DNA of 64,000 bases from contig CBDCSF010000004.1 of NCBI GenBank assembly GCA_965221445.1, positions 5,556-69,555 of the forward strand, written 5' to 3'. The translations under genes and the position numbers were made by a program. Positions 6,379 to 50,769 of this stretch are shown here, in pieces (within the stretch, counting starts at the first letter, position 1; the number at the start of each line of letters is the position of its first letter). Origin of the DNA: Paracoccaceae bacterium. Lineage in GTDB: Bacteria; Pseudomonadota; Alphaproteobacteria; Rhodobacterales; Rhodobacteraceae. The notes under the pieces are model-generated. The model was not told the DNA's origin and did no database searches. It saw only the letters and a program-made list of their open reading frames with translations.

Positions 6379-6977
6379 ATGACCGCTGCAAGAGAATAAT
6401 GGGACGGAGAACCATGATACTGGGTGGTCTGACCTGCGGAGCCACTTCAATGCTGGCTTCACCTGCCCAAAGCTGGGTACCTGAACGTCTGCCCAACCCG
6501 TCGCGACCGGGAAGTCGGCTGGACAATCTCATGCCTGAAACCGAGCCAATCCTCAATCTTTTCAATCCCCACACGAAGGAAAGCTTTCAGGGCAAATTCC
6601 ATCATCAGGATTCCTATATCGTGGATGCCATAAAACATCTGAATTACTTCCTCAGAGACTGGAGGGCGAATATTTCTGTCCCAATCTGTCTGCGTCTCTA
6701 CTGGGCACTGGCCAGAATGACACAGGAGCTGGAGCTTAAAAAACCGCTGGTCATCCTGTCAGGATACAGGACGCCAGAAACCAACAGCAAACTGGAAGGA
6801 GCCGTGCCGAACAGCATGCATCTTTACGGTCGTGCCATAGATCTTCACAGTACCGAGGTGGCCAGCAAGGATATTTTTAAGCTGGTAAACAGTCTTCAGA
6901 TTGGAGGAAGCGGTTGGTATCCAAGGGGTGGGTTTGTGCATATCGACAGTGGGAGAATCCGGCAATGGAGAGAATAA
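6375..6977 (+). CDS. Tat-exported DUF882 / peptidase M15A (YcbK/MepK-like) murein peptidase
   Basis: N-terminal MGRRTMILGG...ASPAQS looks like a twin-arginine signal. Motifs: SGYRTPETNSKLEGAVPNSMHLYGRAIDLH and GGSGWYPRGGFVHIDSG. The start overlaps the dotA stop. Confidence 0.8.
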   Translation: MNDRCKRIMGRRTMILGGLTCGATSMLASPAQSWVPERLPNPSRPGSRLDNLMPETEPILNLFNPHTKESFQGKFHHQDSYIVDAIKHLNYFLRDWRANISVPICLRLYWALARMTQELELKKPLVILSGYRTPETNSKLEGAVPNSMHLYGRAIDLHSTEVASKDIFKLVNSLQIGGSGWYPRGGFVHIDSGRIRQWRE

Positions 6978-7079
6978 GGTAAATTTTGGAGTGGATTGTA
7001 GGGAAAAGAATGTCTTTGTATGGGGAAGGTATTAGAATGCCATTATATGTAGTTATAATAAGGCCAATATCATACTTTA

Positions 7080-7115
7080 CTTGTCTTTTATTATTTTATG
7101 TAGTGTTTGGTAGTT
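7080..7115 (-). promoter_or_regulatory. Conserved box 1 (36 bp, inverted orientation) in the AT-rich region upstream of the topoisomerase gene
   Basis: The reverse complement AACTACCAAACACTACATAAAATAATAAAAGACAAG closely matches 37884-37919. Extra half-sites: TGTAGTT at 7048-7054 and AACTACCAA at 7171-7179. Confidence 0.6.
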
Positions 7116-7210
7116 AAGTGTAGTGTTATGTATTGTTTATGGTTTCATTGCTTGTCTTTTAATGCAAATAAACTACCAATTGAATTAAATATAGGGGGTC
7201 GTGAATTTTC

Positions 7211-9304
7211 ATGAATCAGATGTCATCCACAGTTATCATATGTGAGAAACCCTCGCAAGCCAGAAACCTTAGGGCAGCGCTCGGCAACAGCTTCGGACGG
7301 ATCGTCGCAGCACGGGGCCACCTCCTCACTCTCAAAGAACCACATGAGGCCAACCCCGCCTGGGCAAGATGGTCAACTGATATTCTCTGTCCGGAAAAAC
7401 CATATGGCAAGAAACCGGTAAAGGGAGGCTCATCAGCCCTGAAGGAAATCAGGGAGGCTCTCAAGGGTGCCAAAAAGCTGGTCATCGCCACCGATTGTGA
7501 CCGGGAAGGGCTGGTCATCGGACGCGAGATAGCTGATCATGTAAATTTTCGGGGAACTATATTGCGGGCCATCTTTTCTGCTGAAGACAGGAAGACGCTC
7601 CTCGATGCCTTCAACAATCTGCACCCCATAAGTGAATTCGACGGTCTCTATGCTGCCGGTAAGGCTCGCGAACAGTCGGACCAGATATTCAATCTCACCC
7701 TCACCAGGACGGTTTCTGTCCATCTCGGTGGCAACAGCAAACCAATCGGTATCGGACGGGTGCGAACACCTACCCTGGGAATCGTCTGTCAACGTGAACA
7801 GGAAATAATGAATTTCAACCCTGAACCGTACTTTGTTATTACTGCTCAATGCCACCAGCAGGAAAAAGAGTTTGTCGCCACCTACATGAACAGGAAAGGG
7901 GCACCGAACGAAGGCACCAGGAAAGATGCGCACGAGGATCATGACGAAAATGGGGATGGTCCTGACAGTGAAGACAGTAAAAGCCGCCTCTCTGACAGGA
8001 ACGTGGCCGACGCACTGGCTAGGGGAATAAAAGGTTGGGAAGGACCGGTGAAGGTATCAAGAAAGCCTGTCAGCAGAACACCCCCCAGGCCACACGATCT
8101 CTCCTCCCTGCAGAGTCACATGGGATCCCGTTACAAATGGCCGGCCGAGAAAACCCTCAAGGTGGCCCAGACCCTCTATGCCGATCTGAAACTGATCACC
8201 TATCCCAGGGCCGAATGCCGGTATCTGCCGGAAAGTCAGGTGCCCGATGCAGCTCCTCTACGATCGGCCCTGCTCAAGCTGAAACAACTCGGGCTACCCG
8301 CCAACAACCTTCCTCTCCAACCGGTCATACGACAGGGCAGGGGACGGCAAAACCACTATTCCGATGAAGGGGTCGGCGAATCGTCCCACCATGCCATTCA
8401 GCCCAATGTCAAGATTGTTGATGAGCTGGCAACTCTCTGGAATCGATGCAATTCGGACCAGCAGCTCCTGGCCAAAACCATATTCCTAGCCTTCCTGGAA
8501 CAGACCTCGGAAGATGCCCGACTGGAGGAAACCCGAATCAGCTTAACCGTTCCGGCTCCCCGAACAGGTCTCAATCAGGATGCAGATTTTCTGGCCACGG
8601 GCAGGGTTATCATCAGTGGGGGCTGGATGTCTGTTCAGGCTGATTCGGAAATCAGCAGAAAGTCAAGGGATAATGTGCTCCTTCCCCCGATAAAACAGGG
8701 CTCAATTATTACTATTACTGATTCGAATGTTGCCGACAGGTTCACCAGGCCTCCCGGACGATTCTCCGAAGGGGGCATCATCATGGCCATGAAGAACGCC
8801 TGGAAATACATTCCGGCAACGAACAGCCAAATGACAGATCTCCGTGAACGTCTCAAGGCATCCAGTGGGATCGGTACGCCCACCACCCGTGATCAAATCA
8901 TTGAAAGTCTGGTAGGGCAGGGACAGCTCAAACGAATCAGTGGAAGCTTTCAACCGACCGAGGCGGGCATGGCTCTCTGGATGTCTCTCAACAGGGTTGC
9001 ACCGGAACTGGTCGACCCCGGTCTAACGGCCCTCTGGGAATTCCGGCTTGATGAACTCAACCGTAACCCGGAAGCGGAAAAGGAATGGTGGGCTGAAGTC
9101 GGGGAAATTGCCGCCAGCGCCGAACGGGCCAGAAATGAAATCCTTAAACTGCCGGCCGGTGGCCTCAGAGATGTTTTTGCTTCATCACACGGGAATAACG
9201 GATCTGGGAAAAACCGTTCCTACAAAGGGAAACGAAAGGGAAGATTAACCAGAGGGCAGGGCAGTAAGAGGTCGAAATTCGGAAACGGTTATGGACCCGC
9301 TTGA
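7211..9304 (+). CDS. topB: DNA topoisomerase III (type IA), plasmid-borne
   Basis: Toprim motifs VIICEKPSQARNL and VIATDCDREG. Active-site tyrosine context ITYPRAECRYLP. 697 aa with a basic C-terminal tail. Confidence 0.85.
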   Translation: MNQMSSTVIICEKPSQARNLRAALGNSFGRIVAARGHLLTLKEPHEANPAWARWSTDILCPEKPYGKKPVKGGSSALKEIREALKGAKKLVIATDCDREGLVIGREIADHVNFRGTILRAIFSAEDRKTLLDAFNNLHPISEFDGLYAAGKAREQSDQIFNLTLTRTVSVHLGGNSKPIGIGRVRTPTLGIVCQREQEIMNFNPEPYFVITAQCHQQEKEFVATYMNRKGAPNEGTRKDAHEDHDENGDGPDSEDSKSRLSDRNVADALARGIKGWEGPVKVSRKPVSRTPPRPHDLSSLQSHMGSRYKWPAEKTLKVAQTLYADLKLITYPRAECRYLPESQVPDAAPLRSALLKLKQLGLPANNLPLQPVIRQGRGRQNHYSDEGVGESSHHAIQPNVKIVDELATLWNRCNSDQQLLAKTIFLAFLEQTSEDARLEETRISLTVPAPRTGLNQDADFLATGRVIISGGWMSVQADSEISRKSRDNVLLPPIKQGSIITITDSNVADRFTRPPGRFSEGGIIMAMKNAWKYIPATNSQMTDLRERLKASSGIGTPTTRDQIIESLVGQGQLKRISGSFQPTEAGMALWMSLNRVAPELVDPGLTALWEFRLDELNRNPEAEKEWWAEVGEIAASAERARNEILKLPAGGLRDVFASSHGNNGSGKNRSYKGKRKGRLTRGQGSKRSKFGNGYGPA

Positions 9305-11700: not shown

Positions 11701-11743
11701 TGGGCGTTTGCACCCCAGACCCCGCCATTCTGTAAAATAAAAA
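11701..11743. repeat. Box 2, short copy (43 bp identical to 40632-40674)
   Basis: TGGGCGTTTGCACCCCAGACCCCGCCATTCTGTAAAATAAAAA. It is preceded by three TTTTGGGTT motifs at 11633, 11659 and 11685 (26-bp period). Confidence 0.8.
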
Positions 11744-16741: not shown

Positions 16742-16827
16742 GCCTGGTGACAAAAACCATCGTTTTGCCCTGTAAATTCAAAACCCTTATATGTGAGGGT
16801 GTGACAAAATGTCCCCGTGGTAATGAT

Positions 16828-17061
16828 ATGAAAAGGAACAGATTCAGAGAGACGGAATTCAGGGAGTTTGTCTCTGATAGCAACGATAGGGTCAGCAATC
16901 CGTTTTTTGACGGAAGAGAAGACTTGTTGGACCAACTGTCCACCCTGAATACCAATACCTTTTCGAAGGCCCTAAGGAAAGACATAAATTCAGGGGAAGG
17001 GTCAATTACCCTGCTACAGGGACCACCAGGGATAGGCAAGACCTCCCTGCGTTTGTTTTAA
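16828..17061 (+). pseudogene. 5' fragment of an AAA/STAND-like ATPase, paralogous to the N-terminus of 45940-47559
   Basis: FFDGREDLLDQL...ITLLQGPPGIGKTSL aligns with FFTGREDILQAI...TQIIQGPPGVGKTSL. The ORF stops 3 codons after Walker A, and all three frames are closed downstream. Confidence 0.6.
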
Positions 17062-17105: not shown

Positions 17106-17858
17106 ATGGTAAAACTACTAGATGGCACTTGTGGGAAAGATGATATAGTAGCCATTCTTGATCAAATACAGGAAAATTGTCCAAATCCAAAGACGACTTC
17201 GAAAAAATTGTGGAAACTCCGTCAAAAAACGAAAATGGACGAGGAAAAATACTCCCCAGAAATATTACTTGAGAGATCGGTTGCTTTGCTGGCCAAAAAT
17301 AAGCATATGAATGATTGGTACAATCAATGTCCAATTGCCTCTGGTATATGTGGAAACAACAAACGCGTGTGTATAGATCTCGTCAGATGGGATCCAAAGA
17401 AACAGAGATTGTGTTTAACAGAATTGAAATGGGGCAGCGATAATCCCAAAAAGGCAGTGCAACAGATTCTCCGTTATGGAGCAATTTATCTTTATTGTCG
17501 ATGCCATAAGGACAAGCTTAATTTTGTTAACAATGAACTGATGTCAGCCACAAAAATAGTACTGCAGGTTGTTGCCCCAGCAAAATATTATACCGATCAT
17601 ACACAACGTGAAGAAGTATGTAATTGCTTAAAACAAGCAAGGGAAAGCATACATCTAATCAATAATGTACCAGAAATGAAGGGCCTTACAATTTCTTTGG
17701 ATGTACTATCCTTACCCGAATGGTTCCACCCATTACCTTTCAGAAATTACATGGAAGTTAAACAAGCTTGTGGCAAAGAATTGACAAAGGATGGAAGAAA
17801 TGTCATCAATGCTTTCAATGAATTAAGCCCTCATGACTTTGACACTTTGAGGTCTTGA
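17106..17858 (+). CDS. PD-(D/E)xK-like (RecB/Cas4-type) nuclease candidate
   Basis: 250 aa in a low-GC segment. Motif order: CIDLV ... LTELKW ... QQILRY (D, ExK, QxxxY). Confidence 0.4.
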   Translation: MVKLLDGTCGKDDIVAILDQIQENCPNPKTTSKKLWKLRQKTKMDEEKYSPEILLERSVALLAKNKHMNDWYNQCPIASGICGNNKRVCIDLVRWDPKKQRLCLTELKWGSDNPKKAVQQILRYGAIYLYCRCHKDKLNFVNNELMSATKIVLQVVAPAKYYTDHTQREEVCNCLKQARESIHLINNVPEMKGLTISLDVLSLPEWFHPLPFRNYMEVKQACGKELTKDGRNVINAFNELSPHDFDTLRS

Positions 17859-18442: not shown

Positions 18443-20122
18443 CTAGGGGTGAAAAGTTGAAGTTGGCTGAGGAGTGGCCTCTTGTTTGGGTTCAGGGTCA
18501 TAATCTGTTGCTAGGTCAGGGTTCGGGTCAAAGCCCAGTTCACTTGCCATCTGAGGCAAATCAAGAGCTTTAATTCCTTTAGCACCCCATTTGCCTTTCT
18601 GAGCATCCGTAAACACAGGAGCAATAAAGAGGTGTTCAATATTAGGCGGTCGGGTCAGGCCGTTCTGATCATAAAGGCTGGCCAGAGAGTTTTCAAAATA
18701 GGAACCAGGTTTGGTGAAGGTGTCAAACTTTCCAGCATTCCTCTTGCAACTGGCAACCTTGCACGCAATAGCCTTGGCAAAGGGTTGATCAGCCATGTCG
18801 GCAAAAACATCAACTTCTGGACCATGGACAGTCTGGACATTGTACAATCCACCACAGGCCCGAATCCCAATCTCCTGAAAGCGCTGATCCTCAAAGAATT
18901 CCGCTGCAAGCCGTTCCAGATCAAGACCTTCATGACCAGTTGTCCGATGGAGTAACTGCGTAAACTTGACATTCGGTTTGCCGCTACTCAGACCTTGCTG
19001 GTTCAGCCCAAGCCTTTGGACCAGCAACTGGTGTCTCGTGTCATTGTCGATGATGCGATACCGGGACGGGGTTGTTTCCTCAGGCCCATAACTTTGTATG
19101 CCTTGGATCATTCGGAGATGATGCTCCAGCATGACCAGATTTCGTTCGACAGTCTTTTGCCATTCGTACTTACCGAACTCCTTGATTTTATCAGGCTGGT
19201 TAAAAATTTCCGTTCGAGGTACACCACCTGGTTTACCCGCACATAGTATGTACAAGAGATTTTCAGCCTCAGGGTTGAGTTCGATATAAGACTTGTAATT
19301 GTAGGCTTCTTCGGGATTCAACAAGGGACGAAGCGATTCATGACGCCAGAAATAGAGACGCCAACTTTCAAAATCAGTACAGACTAAATTCGGGTCTCTT
19401 CCCTCATACTTACGATAAGACGTCCAGAGGCCAGGAATTCCACCATAAACGGAATAGAGAGTCAGAAACTGGCGGGCATCCCGAAGCCAGCCTTGATCAC
19501 AGGCCATCTGCAGGAGCGGTGCGGTTGTCAACTGTTGCAGGGTTATGCCAAAAGAAAACCTGTTATAAAGAGGTTCTTTGTCACTACCCAGCAGCCTCAT
19601 CATGTTTTGCTGATGCGATCCCGCTACAACTAAACCACCACCGGTGTAGGGTGTCTGTGTGGAGAGGTTTTCATCCTGAATGAGTTTGATCTTGCTGACA
19701 AGACCATTATAAATTTCAATATTATGGAATTCATCAAGGCACACAACTGCACCTTTTGTAACGAGATGACTGAGCTGGCGGGAAAAAGAATCTATATAAT
19801 GTCCTGGTTTGTTCGCATCATAATCCAACATGAGATCACGAAGACCTTCGGCCTGAATCCTCCTGCCCAACTCTCGGCCCAGATCTTCTGAAGATTGAAG
19901 TGTATCGGGAATTTCCATGTACAGAACGGGTTTCTGTTGATTCTGAGGAATTGATCGAATATTGGAGATGACAGCGCTTAGCAATTCGGTCTTGCCAATC
20001 CGGCGGCGACCAATGAGACGAGTACCAACAGCATGATCTCTTTGCATGCTGGTTTGGAGTTTTCCTATTTCTTCATCACGGCCATAAAACCGCCAGGGAT
20101 TTGAACTGCTTTTGGTCATCAT
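18443..20122 (-). CDS. ATPase (archaeal-type ATPase, PF01637-like) with a C-terminal DUF234-like nuclease-fold domain
   Basis: N-terminus WRFYGRDEEIGKL...LIGRRRIGKTELL (Walker A). Walker B VVCLDEFHNI. C-terminal EVDVFAD...ASCKR resembles DUF234. Confidence 0.65.
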   Translation of the reverse strand: MMTKSSSNPWRFYGRDEEIGKLQTSMQRDHAVGTRLIGRRRIGKTELLSAVISNIRSIPQNQQKPVLYMEIPDTLQSSEDLGRELGRRIQAEGLRDLMLDYDANKPGHYIDSFSRQLSHLVTKGAVVCLDEFHNIEIYNGLVSKIKLIQDENLSTQTPYTGGGLVVAGSHQQNMMRLLGSDKEPLYNRFSFGITLQQLTTAPLLQMACDQGWLRDARQFLTLYSVYGGIPGLWTSYRKYEGRDPNLVCTDFESWRLYFWRHESLRPLLNPEEAYNYKSYIELNPEAENLLYILCAGKPGGVPRTEIFNQPDKIKEFGKYEWQKTVERNLVMLEHHLRMIQGIQSYGPEETTPSRYRIIDNDTRHQLLVQRLGLNQQGLSSGKPNVKFTQLLHRTTGHEGLDLERLAAEFFEDQRFQEIGIRACGGLYNVQTVHGPEVDVFADMADQPFAKAIACKVASCKRNAGKFDTFTKPGSYFENSLASLYDQNGLTRPPNIEHLFIAPVFTDAQKGKWGAKGIKALDLPQMASELGFDPNPDLATDYDPEPKQEATPQPTSTFHP

Positions 20123-40510: not shown

Positions 40511-40552
40511 GCCGGCTGAGTCCTCCCTCCTCCCTTCACTCCCTCTTACCTC

Positions 40553-40674
40553 CAGCAGGACCTGTCGTTCCCGTCTTTCGGAAGACATTCTTACTTGTTT
40601 CCCTTTCCTGTGTCCAGGTTCGGTCAACTTGTGGGCGTTTGCACCCCAGACCCCGCCATTCTGTAAAATAAAAA
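40553..40674. repeat. Box 2, long copy (~122 bp intergenic repeat)
   Basis: Near-identical to 44155-44276. Its last 43 bp are identical to 11701-11743. It lies between the dotL stop and the dotB start. Confidence 0.8.
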
Positions 40675-40739
40675 ATTTCTCCCCCATCCCCCTTATTCTA
40701 TTCTATTTAAACCCTTTTTTACCTCATTGATCTCTCCCT

Positions 40740-41885: not shown

Positions 41886-42727
41886 TATATGGCGAACGCT
41901 GTTTCTGGCGTGAAACATCAAACTATCCGCAGGTGATTATAGTTGATGCAAGAATTCTGCTATTCCTGGGACTTGCTGTATTCAATGTAGGGGTTCTTAC
42001 CTTCCTTCTTCTGCTACTCATGGTAGGTATTTTTCTATTACTGGCCTGGAAATCCATCAGGTTTGAATCAGCACTCAGATTGATCAGACTTTTTTTTCTG
42101 GGCCTGGAACGCCCTGCCACAACCAGACCATTACGTCAACCGGTCAATTATATCCAGTACGGTCCGGATGGCCGCTGGTGTCCCTGGCGACTCCGCAATC
42201 TCCCATATAGGGGCGGAGGAATTCTGGCCCTGGTTTGTGCAGTTGGTCTGGTACTTGCCCCTGAAAAGGGAAACAGCTGGATGTACTGGCAAGGTCTTGC
42301 CCCTTATTATCAAACTGAAGAGGCATCACCAGAAAATCTTCAGCGCCCCCTGCCTGGTGCCACACCTTTTTATTCACCTTCACCGGTTAATCCGGACTGG
42401 TATCAGGGCTGTCTCATGCCTGGCATTAATCAACACTGGTGCCATCCGGTGCTTTTCAAGTCTCCTGATAATCTTGATCCACTGGATAGGCAAAACCATG
42501 GACCAAAGGCAAGGGAGGTATTCTGGCCGACCAGAATGAATAATGGTTTAGATGATACCAAAACCCAACCATCCTGTATCTGGATCGTTTCACCCGGTGA
42601 CACTCTTTCTTTCATTGCCGGTGTAGTCTATGGATACATGACTCTTTGGCCGGAACTCGCTGCAGCCAATGGGATTGAAGAACCCTGGCATATTTATCCT
42701 GACCAATGTATTATCGACCTGAAATAG
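41882..42727 (+). CDS. IcmT/TraK-like membrane protein fused to a C-terminal LysM domain
   Basis: The N-terminus FWRETSNYPQVIIVDARILLFLGL...IRFESALRLIRLFFLG follows the IcmT pattern. The C-terminus WIVSPGDTLSFIAGVVYG...LAAANGI is LysM-like. Confidence 0.6.
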   Translation: MIYGERCFWRETSNYPQVIIVDARILLFLGLAVFNVGVLTFLLLLLMVGIFLLLAWKSIRFESALRLIRLFFLGLERPATTRPLRQPVNYIQYGPDGRWCPWRLRNLPYRGGGILALVCAVGLVLAPEKGNSWMYWQGLAPYYQTEEASPENLQRPLPGATPFYSPSPVNPDWYQGCLMPGINQHWCHPVLFKSPDNLDPLDRQNHGPKAREVFWPTRMNNGLDDTKTQPSCIWIVSPGDTLSFIAGVVYGYMTLWPELAAANGIEEPWHIYPDQCIIDLK

Positions 42728-44121
42728 TCGATCAGGCTTTTTACAATGCCATTGTCAAACTTGTTGGCAAGGCGGTCGAGGAATTGATTACAACCAAACG
42801 CGATATTCCTGATGAGCACCTGCAAACATGGCAGGAAGAGGCCAGCCAGTGGTTCTATAGCGGACTGCAACACACCCCCCGCAACCACCAGTATCGAGAA
42901 TGGTTTATTCACAGATCCGTTTTACAGTTGACCGGTTTTGATGCCCTGGAGGCAGCACTTCTTCATCTGGCGTTTCAGCATCACCCCTCGGCCATGGTAA
43001 CTCCTGAAAGGCTGGTGGCTGACAAGTTGCTGGGTGTCCCACCACAAAAAGGCTGGCAACGATACTGGCAGCAGGAAAGGAAACTTCAGGCAGCTGTCGC
43101 CCAGCTGATTGAGGAACGTGGCTGGAGTGCCGACCCGCAGGATGGTCTCATTTATGAGAAGGATCCCTTTTTTGCCGGCAGAATCATGCGTGATGATGAA
43201 GGTCGTGTTCTGGTTGTGCTTCCCGACAGGGATACCGATATCGCTACCGGCATGATCGGACCCATTGACAGTCGCCATCTCTGTCTTGTCCTGCATGACG
43301 CCAAACAGCATGTTTCCGTTCGGACAGGTGGGATCGTTACCATGGATCCTCATTCCCTGGCGATCAACTGGCATGAAGCAATTTATGACAATGAGCTTGG
43401 CCGGGAACTAGCCGATCTCCGTGAATCAGTATGGAACAATCATGTACTTGATGGCAACCCACTACCTGATACAAAATCATTAAAGAATCCCCCACCAGGT
43501 GATGGACAGTCAAGTCTTACTACGGATCAGCTCAACAATCTTCAATTCCTTATTATGCAACATCGCCTAGGCAAGGAAATTCTGGATTACTCCTGCAAAT
43601 TCCACAGGGAAAGCAGGCATCTTCTCCATTCCTTTCTGACAGAGAGTTCCCTTAAACCAAATGCATATGCTTTTGGGGATTGCAGGTTAAACTACCAGCT
43701 GACCCGTGATCCATCTCGTATCCGGGAAGCTCTTGAGACTCTGAATATCCCGCTGGAGAACCTGAGGAGTCCTCTCAAGGCAGGTGATAAGGGGGAAATC
43801 AACCGTATTGCATTACAGGCCATGTTGGCGGAATTGAAAATCCTGCTGGCTGACGATGATCATGTTGCCCTGAAGGAGGGGGTTGAGCGTTTGCTTAAAC
43901 TTCCCATCGAACTTGGTCCCATTGACATGAAAAAGGCAGCCTCGCTTTTGGATAAATCAACCCTTGTTTCACCTCATGAAATTAACAGGGAACGTCTGGA
44001 AACAGGTGTAACCCATGTCTTGTGGGATAACAAAATCAGTGAGATGAGGGAAAAACTTGGGTCTTTCTATGAGGAACAGGTATTGGCCATGCAAAACAGC
44101 CTGACCACCAGTGACGATTAA
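42706..44121 (+). CDS. hypothetical 471-aa protein, last gene of the dotB operon
   Basis: Long ORF overlapping the upstream gene by 22 nt. No motif recognised and no TM or signal segment. Confidence 0.5.
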   Translation: MYYRPEIVDQAFYNAIVKLVGKAVEELITTKRDIPDEHLQTWQEEASQWFYSGLQHTPRNHQYREWFIHRSVLQLTGFDALEAALLHLAFQHHPSAMVTPERLVADKLLGVPPQKGWQRYWQQERKLQAAVAQLIEERGWSADPQDGLIYEKDPFFAGRIMRDDEGRVLVVLPDRDTDIATGMIGPIDSRHLCLVLHDAKQHVSVRTGGIVTMDPHSLAINWHEAIYDNELGRELADLRESVWNNHVLDGNPLPDTKSLKNPPPGDGQSSLTTDQLNNLQFLIMQHRLGKEILDYSCKFHRESRHLLHSFLTESSLKPNAYAFGDCRLNYQLTRDPSRIREALETLNIPLENLRSPLKAGDKGEINRIALQAMLAELKILLADDDHVALKEGVERLLKLPIELGPIDMKKAASLLDKSTLVSPHEINRERLETGVTHVLWDNKISEMREKLGSFYEEQVLAMQNSLTTSDD

Positions 44122-44154
44122 TTAGGGAATTATAATTAGCACTCTCTTGCCCTT

Positions 44155-44276
44155 CAGCGAGACCTGTCGTTCCCGTCTTTCGGCCGATTCTCCTCTTTGT
44201 TTCCCTACCCTGTGTCCAGGTTCGGTCAACTTGTTGGTGTTTGCACCCCAGGCCCCGCCATTCTGTAAAATAAAAA
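44155..44276. repeat. Box 2, long copy
   Basis: It aligns over its whole length with 40553-40674. It is followed by the inverted repeat TGTGTAT-N6-ATACACA at 44305-44324. Confidence 0.8.
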
Positions 44277-44363
44277 TACTCTCAGACCTCTTTACAATTT
44301 GTCATGTGTATGTCTGTATACACACAATTGAATTGAAATTGTTTGAAAAGGGAAGGGGATTAC

Positions 44364-45413
44364 ATGCCTCTATCATCTTCAGGAACAACACGCCAGAGAA
44401 AATTTTCTACTGCCATCATCAATGGGTGTACCGGTCAGGTCTCGGAATATCTTGCTGAAGGGATCAACCCCAATGACCATCACCCGGAAGGACTAACACC
44501 CCTAGCCCTGTCCTGGCAAAACAATGATTGGTTGTGTGCGGAACTTCTGTTGAATTATGGTGCTCGGATCAACGGAACAATGACTCATGACGGCATGGGG
44601 GATGACAACACCCTTTTACATCTTGTTTGTGCCAAACGCAGTGCTGATCCCGCCTGGATTTCCTTCCTGGGTGAACACAGGGCCAACCCTGATGCTGAAA
44701 ACAGTTTGGGACTGACACCCATGTATTATGCCACCTCCGTGTTCAGTGCGAGGAAGATCGGAGCTCTTGCTGCGATTGGAGCTTCCGGTTCACGTATCTA
44801 TCGCAACCGTCCGGTACTTCATATGGCTGCAATCAAGCATTCTGCCCGACTTGTAACTTCACTCGTGGACGCCGGCACCTCAATTGACTGTAGGGACGAA
44901 GATGGTCGAACGGTATTGCATTATGCCAATCTCTTCCGGTCATACCGTGTTCTTGATGAGGTTTTTGGCCTCGGTGCCAACCCCAATGCACTTGACATCT
45001 GGAGTAACACGCCACTCCATACGATTGTCAGTACTCTTATCCATCACAGTCTGCATCCTGTTTTTCTGGATTCTTTCCTGACGGCCGGGGCCAGACTCAA
45101 TACCCGGAACAGGGATGGGGAAACCATTCTACACAAGCTTCCATGGCAGAAGCCTTCACGGGCAAGAAACTGGCTTGAAAGACTGCTGGCTGCCGGAGTT
45201 AAAGTTAATATTGCGGACAGAAAGGGGGTTACTCCCCTGGAACTTGCTGAGCAACATCAGGACAGAAGTCTGGTCAATATGCTCCTGGCTGCCGGTGCCA
45301 GGAAAGCTGAAATCAAATCACAAGTTGCGTTTCAATATAATAGACAGAATCTTGCCATCTCTCCAATTGAAGACAGGACCGGTCAAACCCATATCGGAAG
45401 GGTAACGATATGA
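44364..45413 (+). CDS. ankyrin-repeat protein (about 8 repeats)
   Basis: Repeated G-x-TPL-H/x-A ... LL..GA.pN blocks (GLTPLALSWQNND, NTLLHLVCAKR, GLTPMYYA, RPVLHMAAIKH, GRTVLHYA, NTPLHTIV, GETILHKL, GVTPLELA). ATG 44364 follows GGAAGGGG. Confidence 0.85.
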   Translation: MPLSSSGTTRQRKFSTAIINGCTGQVSEYLAEGINPNDHHPEGLTPLALSWQNNDWLCAELLLNYGARINGTMTHDGMGDDNTLLHLVCAKRSADPAWISFLGEHRANPDAENSLGLTPMYYATSVFSARKIGALAAIGASGSRIYRNRPVLHMAAIKHSARLVTSLVDAGTSIDCRDEDGRTVLHYANLFRSYRVLDEVFGLGANPNALDIWSNTPLHTIVSTLIHHSLHPVFLDSFLTAGARLNTRNRDGETILHKLPWQKPSRARNWLERLLAAGVKVNIADRKGVTPLELAEQHQDRSLVNMLLAAGARKAEIKSQVAFQYNRQNLAISPIEDRTGQTHIGRVTI

Positions 45414-45826
45414 ATGGTGAATTTGTCGATATACCCTGGATTGGCCCAGATCGACTTTATCTCTATGCTGTACAGGGTAATCTCTTTATGGTTGATATCC
45501 TGCTTAACCATGGGGATGATCCCAATGCCAGAACGTCCAGGGGTGACGCACCCCTTCATGCCAGTTGTCGCAGTTGCCATGAGCCGGTTCTGACCAGGCT
45601 TTTGTCCTGGGGTGGTGATCCCAACATCATGGGGTGCTGGTACGAAACACCCCTTCACATCGCTTCGGAAAAGGGTTGGCAGAGAGGCATCACCCTGTTG
45701 CTGGCTGCCGGTGCCAATGTCAATTGTTCCGACAGGGGAGGGTATTCACCTCTGGCCACAGCTATACGTTTCAAACAGAGGGATACTGCCCGGCAATTGC
45801 TGGAGGCTGGGGCCGAACCACGGTAA
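45410..45826 (+). CDS. ankyrin-repeat protein (about 3-4 repeats)
   Basis: ATGA overlap with the upstream gene. Blocks: GDAPLHASCRSCHEPVLTRLLSWGGDPN, ETPLHIASEKGWQRGITLLLAAGANVN, GYSPLATAIRFK. Confidence 0.8.
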   Translation: MNGEFVDIPWIGPDRLYLYAVQGNLFMVDILLNHGDDPNARTSRGDAPLHASCRSCHEPVLTRLLSWGGDPNIMGCWYETPLHIASEKGWQRGITLLLAAGANVNCSDRGGYSPLATAIRFKQRDTARQLLEAGAEPR

Positions 45827-45939
45827 TCTATTTCAGGAAATGGTAAGCCAATAAATTACGCTAATATTTAAAGTAAGCGGGATATACTGACCAACCCTTC
45901 TTTTGCTTGATAATAGCCATATTTAGGTATAAATCTGAA

Positions 45940-47559
45940 ATGGAACAGCTTTTTGGAATTGCGATTATGACCAAGCCTTACAGATCCGAACTGATGGAAA
46001 GATTCCTGCGAGAGGAGGATAGGAACATAAATCATTTCTTTACAGGTCGTGAGGATATACTACAAGCTATCCAGTCTAAAGCCCTTGCTGTTAATGAACA
46101 GACCCAAGCCAAAATCTCAAGTTCTCCTGCTGCAGGCCTTACCCAGATCATTCAGGGTCCACCGGGAGTGGGAAAAACGAGCCTTCTCGAAAAAATCAGA
46201 CAGGATAGTCTAAAGGTATTGAAGGAAAACAAAAAAGGACACAAGACCATACCGGTTATGATTACGAACCCACGCCGTCTGTCCTATGAAACACTTGGCA
46301 AACGGATAGCGGAAACGATAACTGAACTGTCGCAGGAACTTGGCAGTGTCAAGAATATTGACAAGATAAAAGGATCTCTAAAGGCCGTCTCATCCATAGG
46401 TATACCGGGAATAGTTGAAGTGGATCTTGATGGAACTCGTACCCTTAAGAAAAAAAACCTTGTTCCTGAGGGATACACGATCATTCTGATGATAGATGAA
46501 ATTCAGAATATTCCACCTGACAAGGATTCCGAGGCAGCAATGGTTTTGGAAAGTCTGCATGGCGGCAGCGATGGCTACCCCATACTTCCAGTTGTAGCAG
46601 GACTCTCCAGTAGCAGGGGTATATTAACCCATTACGCCTTTTCCCGTCTTGGAGGATGGGCACTTCACAATGTACCAACGCTTACGGCGAATGAGGTCCG
46701 AGAATCTTTTGAAAAATTTATAGGGTATTTCAATATACGGTCAGATAAGGACACAACCAGAATCTGGTCCGATTTCATGGTTGACTGGTCGGGAGGCTGG
46801 CCCAAGCATCTTCAGAATACAATGGCGGTTCTTGGTAGGTTTATTCATTGTCTGAAGGATCAGGGAAATCTGACAATCGCTGATCCTCATCTAGTCAAGA
46901 AGGCAGCTTTCCAAAAAAAAACTGAATATTACAAAACCAGGTGTGGATTATTTGATTCCATGCCCGTAATTATCGGAGAGATAATGGCTGAAGTGGGATC
47001 AATACCAAAATCTCAGGTTGAAATTGTAAACATTTCCCGGGATATTTATATGAGTTCGAAGTGGAAACCCATAATTGAGGAACTTGATTTTCCCGTTCCA
47101 AATTTCCATTATTTGCTACACAACGGTTTTATCGATAATGCTCCAGAACCATTTGAGGATTGTTATCATTGTCCGATTCCATCCTTGCAATCGTTTATAG
47201 TAGCGACGACAGGATCAGGAATTCATACAGCAGTATATGAGGGTGATGAGGGGAGCATAAGGCCCCTCATACAGAGAGGGCATGATATCAATGGCCAGGA
47301 TGCCTGGGGACGAACACCCCTGCATATTGCCGCCGAGAACAACTGGGATCGGGTGGTAGCTGTCCTTCTTCAGGAGGGTGCAGACCCGGAAATCCGTGAC
47401 CAACAGAACAACCGCCCTCTGGAATTGGCAAGGGAGGATTCTGCATCCCACCTGAAGCTCATGAGGGTGTCTGTTGCCATAAAGGATAATAACCCAACTG
47501 ACACTCAACAATCAAAGCTTACAGAAAACCAGTCGGTTTCATCCCGCCCCAAAATGTAG
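45940..47559 (+). CDS. AAA/STAND-like NTPase with C-terminal ankyrin repeats
   Basis: FFTGREDIL, Walker A IIQGPPGVGKTSLLEKI and Walker B TIILMIDEIQNI. C-terminal GRTPLHIAAENNWDRVVAVLLQEGADPEIRDQQNNRPLELA. Confidence 0.75.
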   Translation: MEQLFGIAIMTKPYRSELMERFLREEDRNINHFFTGREDILQAIQSKALAVNEQTQAKISSSPAAGLTQIIQGPPGVGKTSLLEKIRQDSLKVLKENKKGHKTIPVMITNPRRLSYETLGKRIAETITELSQELGSVKNIDKIKGSLKAVSSIGIPGIVEVDLDGTRTLKKKNLVPEGYTIILMIDEIQNIPPDKDSEAAMVLESLHGGSDGYPILPVVAGLSSSRGILTHYAFSRLGGWALHNVPTLTANEVRESFEKFIGYFNIRSDKDTTRIWSDFMVDWSGGWPKHLQNTMAVLGRFIHCLKDQGNLTIADPHLVKKAAFQKKTEYYKTRCGLFDSMPVIIGEIMAEVGSIPKSQVEIVNISRDIYMSSKWKPIIEELDFPVPNFHYLLHNGFIDNAPEPFEDCYHCPIPSLQSFIVATTGSGIHTAVYEGDEGSIRPLIQRGHDINGQDAWGRTPLHIAAENNWDRVVAVLLQEGADPEIRDQQNNRPLELAREDSASHLKLMRVSVAIKDNNPTDTQQSKLTENQSVSSRPKM

Positions 47560-48315
47560 GCTTTGCCCTGAAGCAGTAAATTTCCTGGATAGCAGGTGCC
47601 AGGGAAATCCGTTCCACTCTTCGTCATCAAGAAGCCGTCCGCCTGATTTAGGACGTGGACCTCCCCATTGCTTGAAGAAAAAGGCAATATTCTCCTCCAT
47701 ACACTGATCCCTGATTTCTGTTGCCCACTCAGGGGCCATTACTCTTGCTTTTGGTCCACTTTCACCACCAACAATTACCCAGGCGATATCAGACAGATCA
47801 ACATCACCAATCGGTCCCAAGAGTGGTTCAAATGAAATAAACAACGCCTCCGAGTTTATTCGTCTGAGATGTTCAATACGCCCCTTGTGTCCCGAATTCT
47901 CAACTGAAACACCAAGCCAAATATGTGATGGTATGGGCTTTTTGTCATATCTACTTTTCAAATAGTTTTGCATAAGCGAACTTCGTTTGGTCAGGATCTG
48001 ATAGATATGCCAGTCGGCTTCTTCCATGATGTCGAAGACCTGGTCTATGAAACACCGATCAACTTTCTTGTGAAACAGATCGCTCATAGAATTCACAAAA
48101 ATCATGTGGGATTTTTTCCAGGATACTGGTATTCCCAGTCGAGAGGGCCAGAGACGCAGGTCAAATCCCTGTTCGTAAGGATGACCCTTGATTCCTCGCC
48201 ACCGTTCGGCAAATCGCTCTGCATAGCAATTATCACACCCGGGGCCTATCCTGGTGCACCCTGTAACTGGATTCCAGGTCGCATCTGTCCATTCGATCCG
48301 TGATTTCTGTGCCAT
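47539..48315 (-). CDS. DUF5131 (phage Gp37/Gp68 family) protein
   Basis: N-terminus KSRIEWTDATWNPVTGCTRIGPGCDNCYAERFAERW is typical of the family. The 3' end overlaps the convergent ATPase-ANK gene by 21 nt. Confidence 0.8.
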   Translation of the reverse strand: MAQKSRIEWTDATWNPVTGCTRIGPGCDNCYAERFAERWRGIKGHPYEQGFDLRLWPSRLGIPVSWKKSHMIFVNSMSDLFHKKVDRCFIDQVFDIMEEADWHIYQILTKRSSLMQNYLKSRYDKKPIPSHIWLGVSVENSGHKGRIEHLRRINSEALFISFEPLLGPIGDVDLSDIAWVIVGGESGPKARVMAPEWATEIRDQCMEENIAFFFKQWGGPRPKSGGRLLDDEEWNGFPWHLLSRKFTASGQSLHFGAG

Positions 48316-48368: not shown

Positions 48369-48445
48369 ACAGTAAAAGCCTCCTCTCCAGAGAAATTTCA
48401 TGAGCATACACATTTAAATTTTGCAATTTCCCGATGTGTATGAAC
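48369..48445. promoter_or_regulatory. Box 3 copy plus 9-bp inverted repeat upstream of the rep-like gene
   Basis: 48369-48416 matches 50551-50597. CATACACAT (48405-48413) and ATGTGTATG (48434-48442) form an inverted repeat with a 20-bp spacer. Confidence 0.6.
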
Positions 48446-48503
48446 GTAACTTGTGGTGATTTTGTCAGGGAATCATCCAACAAACAAGTTCATTGGAAAG
48501 CAG

Positions 48504-49802
48504 ATGACAGATATAAAGAGCAGTGCCAGGCCCAAAAGCCCAGACCAGGGCAACAGAATAAAAATCCAGCAATCTGCTGTGGTTAAAGAGCGCCATCCGG
48601 AGGAACCCAGGGACCCGGTACGCATTGTTGACAACCTTCCCATGGTCTGGAAGGAGAACCAGTGGTTGACCTCAGAGTGGGTTTATCGGCTCCAGGAGAA
48701 ATGGAACTACATCGAGAGTCACCTTCATCCGGAAATTATCGGATGGACCGGTGTGGCCAACTACGATGAAAGTAAAAAAAAGGGTGATGTCGTCATCATT
48801 GTCAGCCATCCCCTGTTCTGGCAGGATAAACAGGAATTCGATTCTCATGGAGAAGCCAGGAAAGAAACCCGCAGACAGTTTGCCAGGGCATTGGGAATCC
48901 AGGTCGGAAAGTTGATCGTTCTGGGCGGAGGTGGTATCCTGACAAGGGAAAAATGGCAAAGCCGGCTCAGGCCACTGGCGGAATTACCAACCGATGTGGC
49001 GGTCATGCCAAGTCACTGGTGTGAAACCAGGCTGTTTATACCGGTCAAGCGTGGGCGCAAGGCTTTTGTTGAGGATGTGATCATAGTCGATCGTCCTGAT
49101 GTCCAGATAAAGATGGCAGGCAAGCAACTGAACATGAAGGACGCCAAGGTGCTCATGGCTCTTCTCAGGATGATGAAGGATGAACCGGTTGAAGATATGG
49201 TTGAAACTACGCTGCATGAGCTTTGCCGAGCCACAGGTGGCCGGAAACAGGCTTTTGGATCCGGAGCCGTGAAGTCTGTACTGGCCAGCCTGAACCGATT
49301 GGACTGGCTACGCCTTGAGGTAAGGAACAAGGAGGGACGATCAGTCTACAGAGGCAATCTTCTTCTCCATTGCTGGCGTGACGAGGTCACCCTGCGTTTG
49401 AAGATACAGTTCAATCCGTTTCTGATCAGGTTGTTTGAAAATCTCAATTACCTGCAGTGGGACTACATCAGGAATCTGGGTGCCGCCGAACAATGGTTCT
49501 ACATGGCGGTTACCAAGGACAGGCCAGGTCAAACGCAGTATCGTCAGTTGCTTGATGTTTATCCCAAATACACCGGCAATGAAAAATTCCAGCAAAATGC
49601 TTACAGAAAGTGGGTTTCCAAGGTTGCAAAACCATGCCTGAAGAAGTTGGAGGAGGACGGTATCATAACCCACCTCTCCATCACCCGATCATCAAAGGGC
49701 GGTCATGTGACCTCATGGATAGTTGCAGCCCTGGCCGGAATTGAACCGGGTAGTGATATAAGGGAGGGTTTCCTCAGGGTAGAGGAGAAGGGTGTCCTTT
49801 GA
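48504..49802 (+). CDS. plasmid replication initiator-like protein (TrfA/RepA-type winged-helix, tentative)
   Basis: ATG 48504. The central region LNMKDAKVLMALLRMM...TLHELCRATGG...VLASLNRLDWLRLEV resembles iteron-binding initiators. It is followed by tandem 22-bp iterons. Confidence 0.45.
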   Translation: MTDIKSSARPKSPDQGNRIKIQQSAVVKERHPEEPRDPVRIVDNLPMVWKENQWLTSEWVYRLQEKWNYIESHLHPEIIGWTGVANYDESKKKGDVVIIVSHPLFWQDKQEFDSHGEARKETRRQFARALGIQVGKLIVLGGGGILTREKWQSRLRPLAELPTDVAVMPSHWCETRLFIPVKRGRKAFVEDVIIVDRPDVQIKMAGKQLNMKDAKVLMALLRMMKDEPVEDMVETTLHELCRATGGRKQAFGSGAVKSVLASLNRLDWLRLEVRNKEGRSVYRGNLLLHCWRDEVTLRLKIQFNPFLIRLFENLNYLQWDYIRNLGAAEQWFYMAVTKDRPGQTQYRQLLDVYPKYTGNEKFQQNAYRKWVSKVAKPCLKKLEEDGIITHLSITRSSKGGHVTSWIVAALAGIEPGSDIREGFLRVEEKGVL

Positions 49803-50550: not shown

Positions 50551-50597
50551 ACAGTAAAGCCTCCTCTCCTGAGAAAATTCATGAGCATACACATTTA
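50551..50597. promoter_or_regulatory. Box 3 copy upstream of the 50770 gene
   Basis: ACAGTAAAGCCTCCTCTCCTGAGAAAATTCATGAGCATACACATTTA. It is followed by the palindrome GTATCC-ATG-GGATAC. Confidence 0.6.
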
Positions 50598-50769
50598 GTT
50601 TTTGTATCCATGGGATACGAATCCTAATGATTGTCAGGAGATGTAGTCGATCCAAACTTTTGGAAATAAACGGTCAGATTAAAAAAATGCAAGTCGGTTT
50701 TGACATTTGCACATGCAACCCGAGAGTTAAGGTTAAACGTGTTTAACCATTATGTAAGGAGTAAAAACC

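Follow-up and report, generated by a model that had tools for sequence, protein, structure and literature searches.

An uncharacterised AAA+/STAND-like NTPase fused to ankyrin repeats, adjoining a conserved ankyrin gene pair on an IncI-like conjugative plasmid of a Paracoccaceae bacterium

The ankyrin gene island

The stretch of DNA analyzed here (hereafter the window) comprises 64,000 nucleotides of contig CBDCSF010000004.1 (positions 5,556 to 69,555, forward strand) from assembly GCA_965221445.1 of a Paracoccaceae bacterium, and we describe an island at 44364-47559 of the window in which three genes encode ankyrin-repeat (ANK) proteins. The first two, ANK-A and ANK-B, consist of repeats throughout most of their length, and the third encodes a nucleoside triphosphatase (NTPase) fused to ankyrin repeats, here called NTPase-ANK. 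This protein is an uncharacterised variant of the theme of an AAA+/STAND NTPase followed by repeats. The conjugative plasmid that encodes it is of a symbiont type, and a conserved ankyrin pair adjoins the gene. The components of the island are the following.

44364-45413, plus strand: ANK-A, 349 aa, about 8 ankyrin repeats and a non-repeat tail of about 40 aa (open reading frame (ORF); Pfam Ank_2 7e-22 and others)
45410-45826, plus strand: ANK-B, 138 aa, 4 ankyrin repeats (ORF; Pfam)
45940-47559, plus strand: NTPase-ANK, 539 aa with ATG start at 45940 (same protein as database entry P0001)
45940-47211, plus strand: NTPase module, aa 1-424 (alignment of 28 homologues, AlphaFold2 (AF2) models and Foldseek; Pfam sub-threshold only)
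47212-47439, plus strand: ANK module, aa 425-500, 2-3 repeats (Pfam Ank_2 1.8e-10, Ank 3.1e-10; family-wide motif DAWGRTPLHIAAENNW)
47440-47559 including the stop codon, plus strand: C-terminal end, aa 501-539 (last modelled helix 502-510)

An earlier reading of the letters and their ORFs (the sequence-only reading) had listed three consecutive plus-strand ORFs, and an ORF scan finds all three. The ATGA overlap between the ANK-A stop and the ANK-B start, which had been taken as translational coupling, is read directly in the sequence, and the size given for the pair (about eight repeats in ANK-A, 138 aa in ANK-B) holds. The third protein had been put at 540 aa, one residue too many, while its description as an NTPase with ankyrin repeats agrees with Pfam and the AF2 model. 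ANK-A has a ribosome-binding site, GGGAAGGGGA, upstream of its ATG and an alternative TTG start at 44343. Pfam ankyrin repeats occur in all three proteins, with TPLH-type motif counts of 8, 4 and 2-3 in ANK-A, ANK-B and the fusion, and signal peptides are not evident in any of them.

Parts and motifs of NTPase-ANK

Motif conservation was judged on an alignment of 28 homologues. The NTPase module carries, in order, FFTGRED (a hhGRExE-type motif), Walker A GPPGVGKTS (K79), Walker B MIDEIQ (D186/E187), the sensor-1-like strand end AGLSSS, SRLG with the invariant R236, GWPKH (a GxP-type lid), a winged helix and the junction motif CPIPSL. The stretches FFTGREDIL, GPPGVGKT and MIDEIQ, picked out earlier as the marks of the NTPase, are thus present, and they are conserved or invariant among the homologues: in the N-terminal motif FFxGR(E/K)D residues F34, G36 and R37 are nearly invariant, Walker A reads GPPGxGKTS, Walker B has the family consensus hhhIDEIQ with D186 and E187 invariant, and in the lid P288 and H290 are invariant and W287 nearly so. 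As the catalytic motifs (K79, D186/E187 and R236) are intact, nucleotide binding and hydrolysis are expected.

The AF2 model of the whole protein has a predicted local distance difference test score (pLDDT) of 83.3 and a predicted TM-score (pTM) of 0.82, with a pLDDT of 82.8 for residues 1-424, and it includes a helical domain followed by a winged-helix-like alpha/beta unit. Within the ANK module D454, R458, T459, L461, W469 and G480 are invariant, and the conserved residues include hairpin positions that do not belong to the repeat framework (D454, W456, R458 and N467-W469). Mean pairwise identity over the 76 residues of this module is 47%, the same as in the NTPase domain, and it is lowest in the tail (29%). 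Since conservation of the ANK module, hairpin included, equals that of the ATPase, the module is more readily seen as contacting a conserved ligand, or another part of the same protein, than as a diversifying antigen receptor.

The last residues, 515-539 (about 25 aa), form a polar, S/T-rich low-confidence tail with pLDDT <50. The C-termini of many homologues end in an acidic/aromatic tail, DNDFNPSPDF(D/G)M, and those of others in SSRPK(M/I) (alignment columns 600-740). Such short conserved peptides at the C-terminus, set behind a disordered linker, might serve for docking or as a signal for secretion.

No effector or adaptor domain was found at either end of NTPase-ANK by Pfam, PADLOC, NCBIfam or in the AF2 model. 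With only about 30 residues before the GRE motif and no effector, the tripartite architecture of NLR and Avs proteins is incomplete.

Classification of the NTPase

The sequence-only reading had described an AAA/STAND-type NTPase and had named ORC/Cdc6 AAA+ and STAND/NACHT as the classes between which profiles and structures should decide. Profile searches place the window protein under every curated cut-off of Pfam and NCBIfam, and NCBIfam holds no family model for it. Its sub-threshold Pfam matches are to AAA_22 (20-21 bits against a cut-off of 27), AAA_16 (18.3 against 32.6), NACHT (15.6 against 26.7), ATPase_2 and KAP, and the same weak matches recur over 21 homologues: AAA_22 in all 21, AAA_16 in 20, TniB in 14, ATPase_2 in 12, NACHT in 11 and nSTAND1 in 6, with the ORC-CDC6-like model weakly matched in three (best E 0.0017). 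None of the STAND cut-offs (AAA_16, NACHT, NB-ARC, nSTAND1-6) is reached by the window protein. Distant members of the family do reach the AAA_22 cut-off, P0120 and P0146 pass AAA_16, and P0146 lies exactly at the nSTAND1 cut-off. Sequence searches of the PDB with the protein and with the NTPase-module profile returned marginal or P-loop-level matches only (guanylate kinase, TnsC, Cdc6 at 0.04), the best for the profile being VchTnsC (E = 0.0013).

For structure comparison the AF2 NTPase module was searched against the PDB with Foldseek. Archaeal ORC/Cdc6 proteins rank highest (1w5s, 1w5t, 2qby, 2v1u and 1fnn; E down to 4e-8, TM 0.41-0.54), with the ORC2/Cdc6 entries 1w5s/1w5t at the top (TM 0.50-0.54). 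Other neighbours are RuvB, eukaryotic ORC and Cdc6, the archaeal ATPase_2 proteins 2qen and 2fna, TnsC, RdrA and the NB-ARC domains of the plant resistosomes NRC4 (query TM-score, TMq, 0.50) and ZAR1 (TMq 0.49), and the alignments to NB-ARC and ORC chains that contain a winged helix are full-length. The modelled fold is that of an AAA+ base, lid and winged helix, common to ORC/Cdc6, TniB/TnsC and STAND proteins. With ORC/Cdc6 and NB-ARC both at TM of about 0.5, structure alone cannot tell these groups apart, and the winged helix, being present in ORC/Cdc6 too, does not discriminate between STAND and ORC.

The motifs are likewise mixed. FFxGRxD and the lid GWPKH are STAND-like, while the strand end AGLSNS and the invariant SRxG arginine (R236), followed by L.PL...EV, resemble ORC and TniB proteins. 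The STAND class, as Leipe et al. reportedly set it out in 2004, is recognised by a hhGRExE-type motif, Walker A and B, a GxP lid and a winged helix; the window protein has this motif before the P-loop, Walker A, the acidic pair of Walker B, the GxP lid and the winged helix. It thus resembles STAND NTPases (AAA_16/nSTAND1, including NLRs, Avs and MalT) in these elements and in having C-terminal repeats that form a superstructure, but differs from them in lying below every cut-off, in having no effector and just 2-3 conserved ankyrin repeats, and in its ORC/TniB-like arginine. The sensor-2 motif of ORC/Cdc6 is of the GDAR type. With archaeal and eukaryotic ORC/Cdc6 and with ATPase_2 proteins (PF01637) NTPase-ANK shares the three-domain order, the GRE-type N-terminal motif and the box-VII-like SR arginine, and its fold and nearest structures are theirs; it differs in its low identity (12-14%), in its sub-threshold Pfam scores, in having GWPKH where the sensor-2 arginine motif would be expected, and in its C-terminal ankyrin repeats. 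The defining Walker B signature of NACHT proteins is D[GAS]hDE (10.1101/2022.07.19.500537). This signature is absent from the window Walker B (M-I-D-E-I-Q) and from the family consensus, as are the signature motifs of NB-ARC.

Because no curated cut-off is reached, the motifs are mixed and the fold is shared, we place the NTPase, on sequence and model, in a clade without a name in the neighbourhood of ORC/Cdc6, TniB and STAND. The earlier label is supported as far as a three-domain AAA+ protein with STAND motifs is concerned, and the likeness of its structure to the two named classes is about equal. The data do not support placing it in NACHT, Avs or NB-ARC.

An NTPase followed by a repeat sensor had also been likened to the immune sensors of the NLR/Avs type. 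The order of NTPase and repeats is indeed there; the repeats are short and conserved, and PADLOC gave no Avs, NACHT/bNACHT or other defence-NTPase match to NTPase-ANK, its only matches being to the ankyrin repeats and, over 27 residues of the P-loop, to MkoA. A classical abortive-infection sensor of this kind, whose repeats would sense a phage protein so that the STAND part oligomerises and a fused effector kills the cell, is very improbable here. What speaks for it is the succession of NTPase, winged helix and C-terminal repeats, the likeness to the resistosome NB-ARC domains, a phage protein labelled NLR-like as the best neighbour in a viral library, and the distant relatives that attain AAA_16 and nSTAND1 cut-offs, but the effector is missing at both ends, the NACHT signature is absent and the repeat module is unlike a variable sensor in being short and conserved. 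The same comparison applies to bNACHT and Avs/AVAST proteins, which are alike in being single-gene NTPase-plus-repeat proteins on mobile or variable islands, whereas their Walker B signature and effector modules are lacking in NTPase-ANK.

Nor does the protein look like an ordinary replication or transposition ATPase, an outcome that would have spoken against the earlier interpretation: no curated model fits it, and no transposase is associated with it. TniB matches in 14 of the 21 members and the VchTnsC match might suggest a TniB/TnsC-type transposition ATPase, but all these scores are below cut-off and no TniA/TnsB or TniQ-type gene lies beside the NTPase gene in the window or in most loci examined, the sole DDE transposase being in locus L001, about 7 kb from the NTPase gene. 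Genomic context effectively refutes this reading.

Family size, architecture and turnover

A word-indexed search returned 62 matches, about 38 of them along most of the protein at 30-47% identity; the few that carry names are proteins of Rhodobacteraceae or Paracoccaceae metagenome-assembled genomes (MAGs). When the NTPase-module profile was run against 1.84 billion representatives, at least 1,643 clusters (50% identity) were matched at E<=1e-3 and 368 at E<=1e-30. Among the top 150 profile matches there are 126 full-length cores, 37 of which have a C-terminal ankyrin extension; the remainder are mostly bare, with a length of about 400-450 aa, and a few have uncharacterised N-terminal extensions. 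Ankyrin is practically the sole repeat type fused to this clade.

The family is often multi-copy, mosaic and frequently truncated. Genome-sized contigs of 3.18 Mb and 3.15 Mb carry four paralogues each, and one of 3.25 Mb carries three. Most homologues are solitary, two bare-module relatives likewise, and the neighbours include RES, HipA, SocA_Panacea and GT4-conflict genes, integrases and transposases. No family member was found in GTDB species-representative genomes by a profile-pattern scan and a scan with back-translated DAWGRTPLHIAAENNW; JGI metagenome contigs scanned with the profile of the plasmid's Rep-like protein yielded one short contig without context, and PLSDB plasmids yielded relatives of the DUF5131 gene only.

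Truncation is seen within the window as well.

16828-17049, plus strand: 5' remnant of a P0002-type NTPase paralogue, 74 codons, residues 1-74 (tblastn and profile search; ORF 16747-17061)

The remnant is 51-53% identical to P0002, P0003 and P0005 and 38% identical to the window protein, and it ends right after Walker A, with no continuation in any frame and no adjoining ANK genes. The sequence-only reading had taken this place, at 16.8 kb, for a decayed second copy of the island; that is ruled out, as neither ANK nor downstream NTPase sequence is present in any frame, and what lies there is a fragment of a different paralogue. A 250-aa ORF at 17106-17858 (plus strand) begins 57 nt past the end of the remnant, without matches in Pfam, NCBIfam, PADLOC or PHROGs; the truncating insertion or deletion may have taken place here. 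Adjoining the remnant in a low-GC (40%) accessory patch is a gene at 18443-20122 (minus strand) for a 559-aa ATPase_2-type protein, which matches the PADLOC single-gene defence candidate PDC-S27 over its full length (4e-39). It was considered as a paralogue of NTPase-ANK and ruled out, since BLASTP gave no match between the two; it belongs to PDC-S27/ATPase_2.

Plasmid setting and comparator loci

The window represents an IncI-like conjugative element. It encodes homologues of DotM (DotM_C), DotI/IcmL, DotH/IcmK and TrbI, a type IV coupling protein (T4CP) and a DotB-like ATPase, together with two primases, a secretin, a PilS-type pilin, a second T2SSE ATPase (two T2SSE ATPases in all) and a type IA topoisomerase. 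Its type IVB secretion system (T4BSS) appears to be a conjugation apparatus of the IncI type, thin pilus included. The features that surround the island are these.

35339-36160, plus strand: a fourth ORF with ankyrin repeats (273 aa), inside the T4BSS cluster
42706-44121: backbone gene, left border of the cargo slot (flanking order common to loci L004 and L015)
47163-47221, plus strand: mosaic breakpoint at the NTPase/ANK junction, exactly at the CPIPSL motif (blastn, region-wise identities)
47539-48315, minus strand: DUF5131 gene (phage Gp37/Gp68 family, PF07505; Pfam 310.8 bits against a cut-off of 28.9)
48453-49802, plus strand: Rep-like gene with a weak Rep3_N match (Pfam), right border of the cargo slot (homologues P0221-P0225)

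With transfer genes on its left and the Rep-like gene on its right, the island sits between them, and its G+C content is slightly lower (44-48% vs 50-54% in the transfer genes).

The adjacency pattern of NTPase-family genes was drawn from about a dozen loci. The trio, which the sequence-only reading had proposed to look for in other genomes, is not a conserved unit in the loci examined. The ANK-A/ANK-B pair is instead a backbone module of the plasmid family, and the slot beside it is variable and repeatedly filled by non-orthologous members of the NTPase family.

The backbone status of the pair is seen best in L015, a 126.5-kb plasmid contig recovered through a search with the Rep-like protein. 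Its gene order is coupling protein, DotB-like ATPase, IcmT_2-like protein, homologue of 42706-44121, an ANK protein of 374 aa, another of 131 aa, and Rep. The two ANK genes overlap by 4 nt, and their products are 58% (over 296 aa) and 54% identical to ANK-A and ANK-B, comparable with the 45-61% identity of the backbone genes; the pair has the same order, overlap and position as in the window. Neither a DUF5131 gene nor an NTPase-ANK fusion is present in L015. An NTPase-family gene (5811-7812, minus strand; 23% identity) lies upstream of the ANK pair in divergent orientation and is split by a single frameshift at GDLGR(V), read-through of which restores RRRYYQRQ...PALVGRVL. Its C-terminal part of about 260 aa contains neither ankyrin repeats nor a Pfam domain, and this points to an alternative C-terminal module in the NTPase clade.

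Locus L004 (contig ctg341721_355x_c, 3.18 Mb, positions 244398-261981) carries this plasmid backbone in the chromosome, in a decayed state. By blastn its flanks are 87-97% identical to the window at the DNA level and its ANK-A region 97%. ANK-A is frameshifted there and fused to the last ANK-B repeat through a deletion between repeats, the homologue of 42706-44121 is frameshifted, a lipase_3 gene has been inserted and three phage-integrase fragments lie downstream, while DUF5131 and the Rep-like gene are kept. This state is evidence of integration of a plasmid into the chromosome followed by decay. The fusion protein of L004 is 38% identical to that of the window in the NTPase module and 77% in the ANK module and tail.

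This difference reflects the breakpoint. Downstream of it (ANK module, tail and DUF5131) the DNA is 82-87% identical to L001 and L004; upstream, in the NTPase module, similarity to L004 is absent from the DNA and that to L001 is limited to a 113-nt match of 69%, with 38-40% identity at the amino acid level. In L001 and L005 the same 3' block stands beside paralogues, with DUF5131 3' remnants of about 23-47 codons. In L005 the intact paralogue P0005 is preceded, at a distance of about 650 bp, by the 3' remnant of another NTPase-ANK gene in tandem (1757-2367), which comprises lid, winged helix and ANK; the ANK part of this remnant is 84% identical in DNA to window positions 47270-47473. A further locus, L014, is an 8.6-kb contig with ParA, Rep (46%), the NTPase-ANK protein P0010 (43%) and UmuDC, and no ANK pair.

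One possible explanation for the repeated adjacency is that the three proteins form one system, with the NTPase as a nucleotide-gated hub and ANK-A and ANK-B as its adaptors, inhibitors or targets in defence or plasmid competition; on this view one and the same interaction would be supplied either by a fused ANK module or by ANK proteins made separately. An NTPase-family gene adjoins the ANK pair in the window, in L004 and in L015 (divergent and without ANK) despite rearrangement, the almost exclusive fusion of ankyrin to this clade is a hint of the Rosetta-stone type, and both ANK-A and ANK-B match the ANK-containing candidate-defence profile PDC-M72A of PADLOC. We nevertheless consider both the single system and the shared interaction unlikely: the PADLOC matches are confined to the repeats, the NTPases in the slot are non-orthologous (23-47% identity) while conservation of the ANK pair matches that of the backbone, L014 has Rep and NTPase-ANK but no ANK pair in its 8.6 kb, and most homologues have no ANK neighbour. 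As the family is multi-copy, chance adjacency in a cargo hotspot is plausible.

The position beside the Rep-like gene in the window, L004 and L014 (there as ParA-Rep-NTPase-ANK) raises the alternative of an accessory of replication or maintenance, in which an ORC/Cdc6-like DNA-binding AAA+ ATPase would work with the Rep-like initiator or a partition system. This we hold to be improbable. The archaeal ORC/Cdc6 proteins are its best structural neighbours, and the SR(L/F)G arginine and L.PL...EV recall box VII of ORC/Cdc6/TniB; yet many copies are solitary chromosomal genes without a rep gene, L015 retains Rep and the ANK pair but has a frameshifted NTPase gene, located beyond the pair as seen from Rep, the lid reads GWPKH instead of a GDAR-type motif, and the Pfam ORC-CDC6-like match is weak and limited to 3 of 21 members. 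The family further differs from ORC/Cdc6 in being multi-copy and mostly solitary, with no evidence of origin binding.

The ANK pair and its upstream elements

Among NCBIfam models the best matches of ANK-A and ANK-B are those of Legionella Dot/Icm Ank effectors (equivalogs AnkY, AnkH, AnkX and others), with a best score of 63.3 bits against cut-offs of 450-1400. Scores 10-20 times under the equivalog cut-offs limit the likeness to the repeats. The proposal that the island is an effector set for the T4BSS is weakened accordingly, the more so as this T4BSS looks conjugative, of the IncI type. ANK-A and ANK-B resemble the Legionella effectors, and the ANK proteins of sponge symbionts, in being pure ankyrin proteins beside a Dot/Icm-type T4BSS, but they share only the repeats with the former, and translocation is only a candidate function.

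ANK proteins are enriched in sponge symbionts and affect phagocytosis. It is possible, though doubtful, that ANK-A, ANK-B and NTPase-ANK form a set of symbiosis factors acting on an animal (sponge) host, for instance on phagocytosis or innate signalling, whether exported by the T4BSS or otherwise. Such a role would accord with four ANK-containing ORFs on one plasmid segment, including the one in the transfer cluster, with an ANK pair no less conserved than the backbone in L015, a contig from a related plasmid with a T4BSS, with the NCBI names of marine MAGs borne by family members, with the conservation of the fusion's ANK surface, which a conserved target in the host would lead one to expect, and with the disordered, polar, S/T-rich tail of the fusion. 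Against it stand the lack of evident signal peptides, the conjugative character of the apparatus (thin pilus, primases and T4CP) as opposed to a dedicated effector translocator, equivalog scores far under the cut-offs, and the family at large, most members of which have no ankyrin repeats and stand alone in chromosomes, at a distance from genes for secretion; the habitat of the host is, moreover, only inferred.

The left side of the island carries two elements, both of which (box 2 and the inverted repeat at 44305-44324) were found where the sequence-only reading had placed them.

44151-44283, plus strand: repeated intergenic box ("box 2"), 133 nt, with a second copy at 40549-40681 upstream of the DotB-like gene (86% identity)
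44299-44328, plus strand: promoter-like site TTGTCA-18-CACAAT around the inverted repeat, 36 nt before the ANK-A ATG

A 43-nt core of the box, TTTGCACCCCAGRCCCCGCCATTCTGTAAAATAAAAA, is 93-100% conserved at three intergenic sites (11701-11743, 40632-40674 and 44234-44276), occurs also upstream of the ANK gene in L004 (5612-5643), and may be promoter-like. The inverted repeat, TGTGTAT-N6-ATACACA, occurs once in the window, and the site that encloses it is a candidate promoter/operator of the ANK operon. As consensus promoter sites are not above chance in number (10 found, 7.3 expected), position is the sole support for this assignment. A 49-nt repeat ending in CATACACAWTTRAAWTTTG occurs at 2430-2478, 48375-48423 and 50556-50604 (3 matches vs 0.12 expected by chance), each copy upstream of a plus-strand gene (starts at 2518, 48453, which is the Rep-like gene, and 50770), and a variant, ATACACACAATTGAATTGAAATTG, lies upstream of ANK-A at 44316-44340. 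This repeat may be a shared operator or promoter-proximal element of a plasmid regulon. The region upstream of rep is about 70% identical to L015. An Rfam scan of the whole window gave no match, so the repeated boxes are not known RNAs.

The DUF5131 gene

On the right the island meets the convergent, overlapping DUF5131 gene, as had been noted from the sequence; the overlap with the end of NTPase-ANK is 21 nt. The protein has a three-cysteine motif, C20-X6-C27-X2-C30 (radical-SAM-like CX6CX2C), and matches PADLOC PDC-M41B and PDC-M30B at about 1e-99. It is thus like the B component of the DUF5131/TcmP pair (PDC-M30, PDC-M41), but the partner is absent: PADLOC found no A component among the neighbours and NCBIfam no TcmP model match. 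On the Sulfitobacter plasmid NZ_CP139705.1 a DUF5131 homologue is followed by tcmP, the place of which is taken in the window by the 3' end of NTPase-ANK. On plasmids of cultured Roseobacteraceae a DUF5131 homologue, with tcmP behind it, occurs among genes of leading-region type (SSB, DUF932, RadC and H-NS). A functional partnership of DUF5131 with NTPase-ANK was considered and rejected as unsupported, because DUF5131 is reduced to 23-47-codon remnants beside intact NTPase-ANK genes in L001 and L005 and is absent from L014 and L015. It is best read as an orphaned backbone or leading-region gene, tied to the ANK-encoding 3' end through recombination history.

Proposed function

We tentatively favor, with a probability of roughly 40%, the view that NTPase-ANK is a nucleotide-gated ankyrin adaptor from a fast-turnover repertoire of conflict or host-interaction genes, its function being predicted. 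The cargo slot of the IncI-like conjugative plasmid (Dot/Icm-type T4BSS with thin pilus) would have two layers, one being the translationally coupled pure-ankyrin pair of the conserved backbone and the other a variable position holding a member of a multi-copy, often truncated AAA+ family, here fused to 2-3 ankyrin repeats. Gene structure, domain composition, fold class, family size, mosaicism and the pattern of neighbour conservation are observed; from them we infer ATP-dependent switching, an ankyrin ligand and a biological role of the following kind. The NTPase would act as an ATP-gated switch, in which nucleotide binding or hydrolysis (K79, D186/E187 and R236) brings about a change of conformation or oligomeric state, as the AAA+/STAND fold implies; the hairpin surface W456/R458/N467-W469 would bind a conserved protein partner; and, since there is no enzymatic or adaptor domain and the ankyrin repeats are the sole recognisable interaction surface, the output would have to be in trans, by recruitment or sequestration of a partner or by DNA binding through the winged helix. 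Multiple copies, truncation, mosaicism at the junction, non-orthologous replacement and neighbours such as RES, HipA and SocA argue for a conflict or host-interaction role over a housekeeping one.

Several observations weigh against this view. PADLOC gave no defence-NTPase match for the protein, the absence of an effector domain is atypical for STAND defence proteins, and the ANK module is not hypervariable, its 47% identity equalling that of the ATPase. One homologue is flanked by SURF1 and thrC in three contigs from MAGs or metagenomes, and another is found just downstream of dapB, with an acyltransferase gene on one side and an uncharacterised gene on the other; these housekeeping contexts fit a stable cellular role as well as they fit defence. 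An NTPase gene stands beside the ANK pair in three related elements, and the proteins could thus work together more closely than two separate layers allow. Finally, the probable sponge association of the host is deduced from NCBI MAG names (Rhodobacteraceae, Paracoccaceae) and from the study codes KELL22 and ROBB21; a literature search with the sample and assembly accessions gave no match.

A bolder alternative, to which we give very little credence, is that proteins of this type are effector-less bacterial mimics of animal NLR switches that act together with ANK-A and ANK-B, delivered by the T4BSS to sponge host cells or to conjugation recipients, and tune innate or phagocytic signalling through a conserved host protein. 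In that case birth-and-death and module swapping among these genes would stem from an arms race in which the host, not phages, is the opponent.

Implications for the family and its hosts

The practical yield of the analysis is a defined family with diagnostic motifs, confident structural models and comparator loci. If NTPase-ANK is indeed a nucleotide-gated ankyrin adaptor, it would represent a large AAA+/STAND-like switch clade without a name (at least 1,643 clusters), dozens of whose members are fused to ankyrin, on the boundary between ORC/Cdc6 initiators and STAND immune NTPases. Such a clade would lack the effector domain that defines known NLR and Avs proteins, and would thereby raise the question how an NTPase-repeat protein can signal without an effector. 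The ANK pair in a Dot/Icm-type conjugative backbone would, in the same case, be a candidate for transferable "eukaryote-like" symbiosis or conflict factors in sponge microbiomes.

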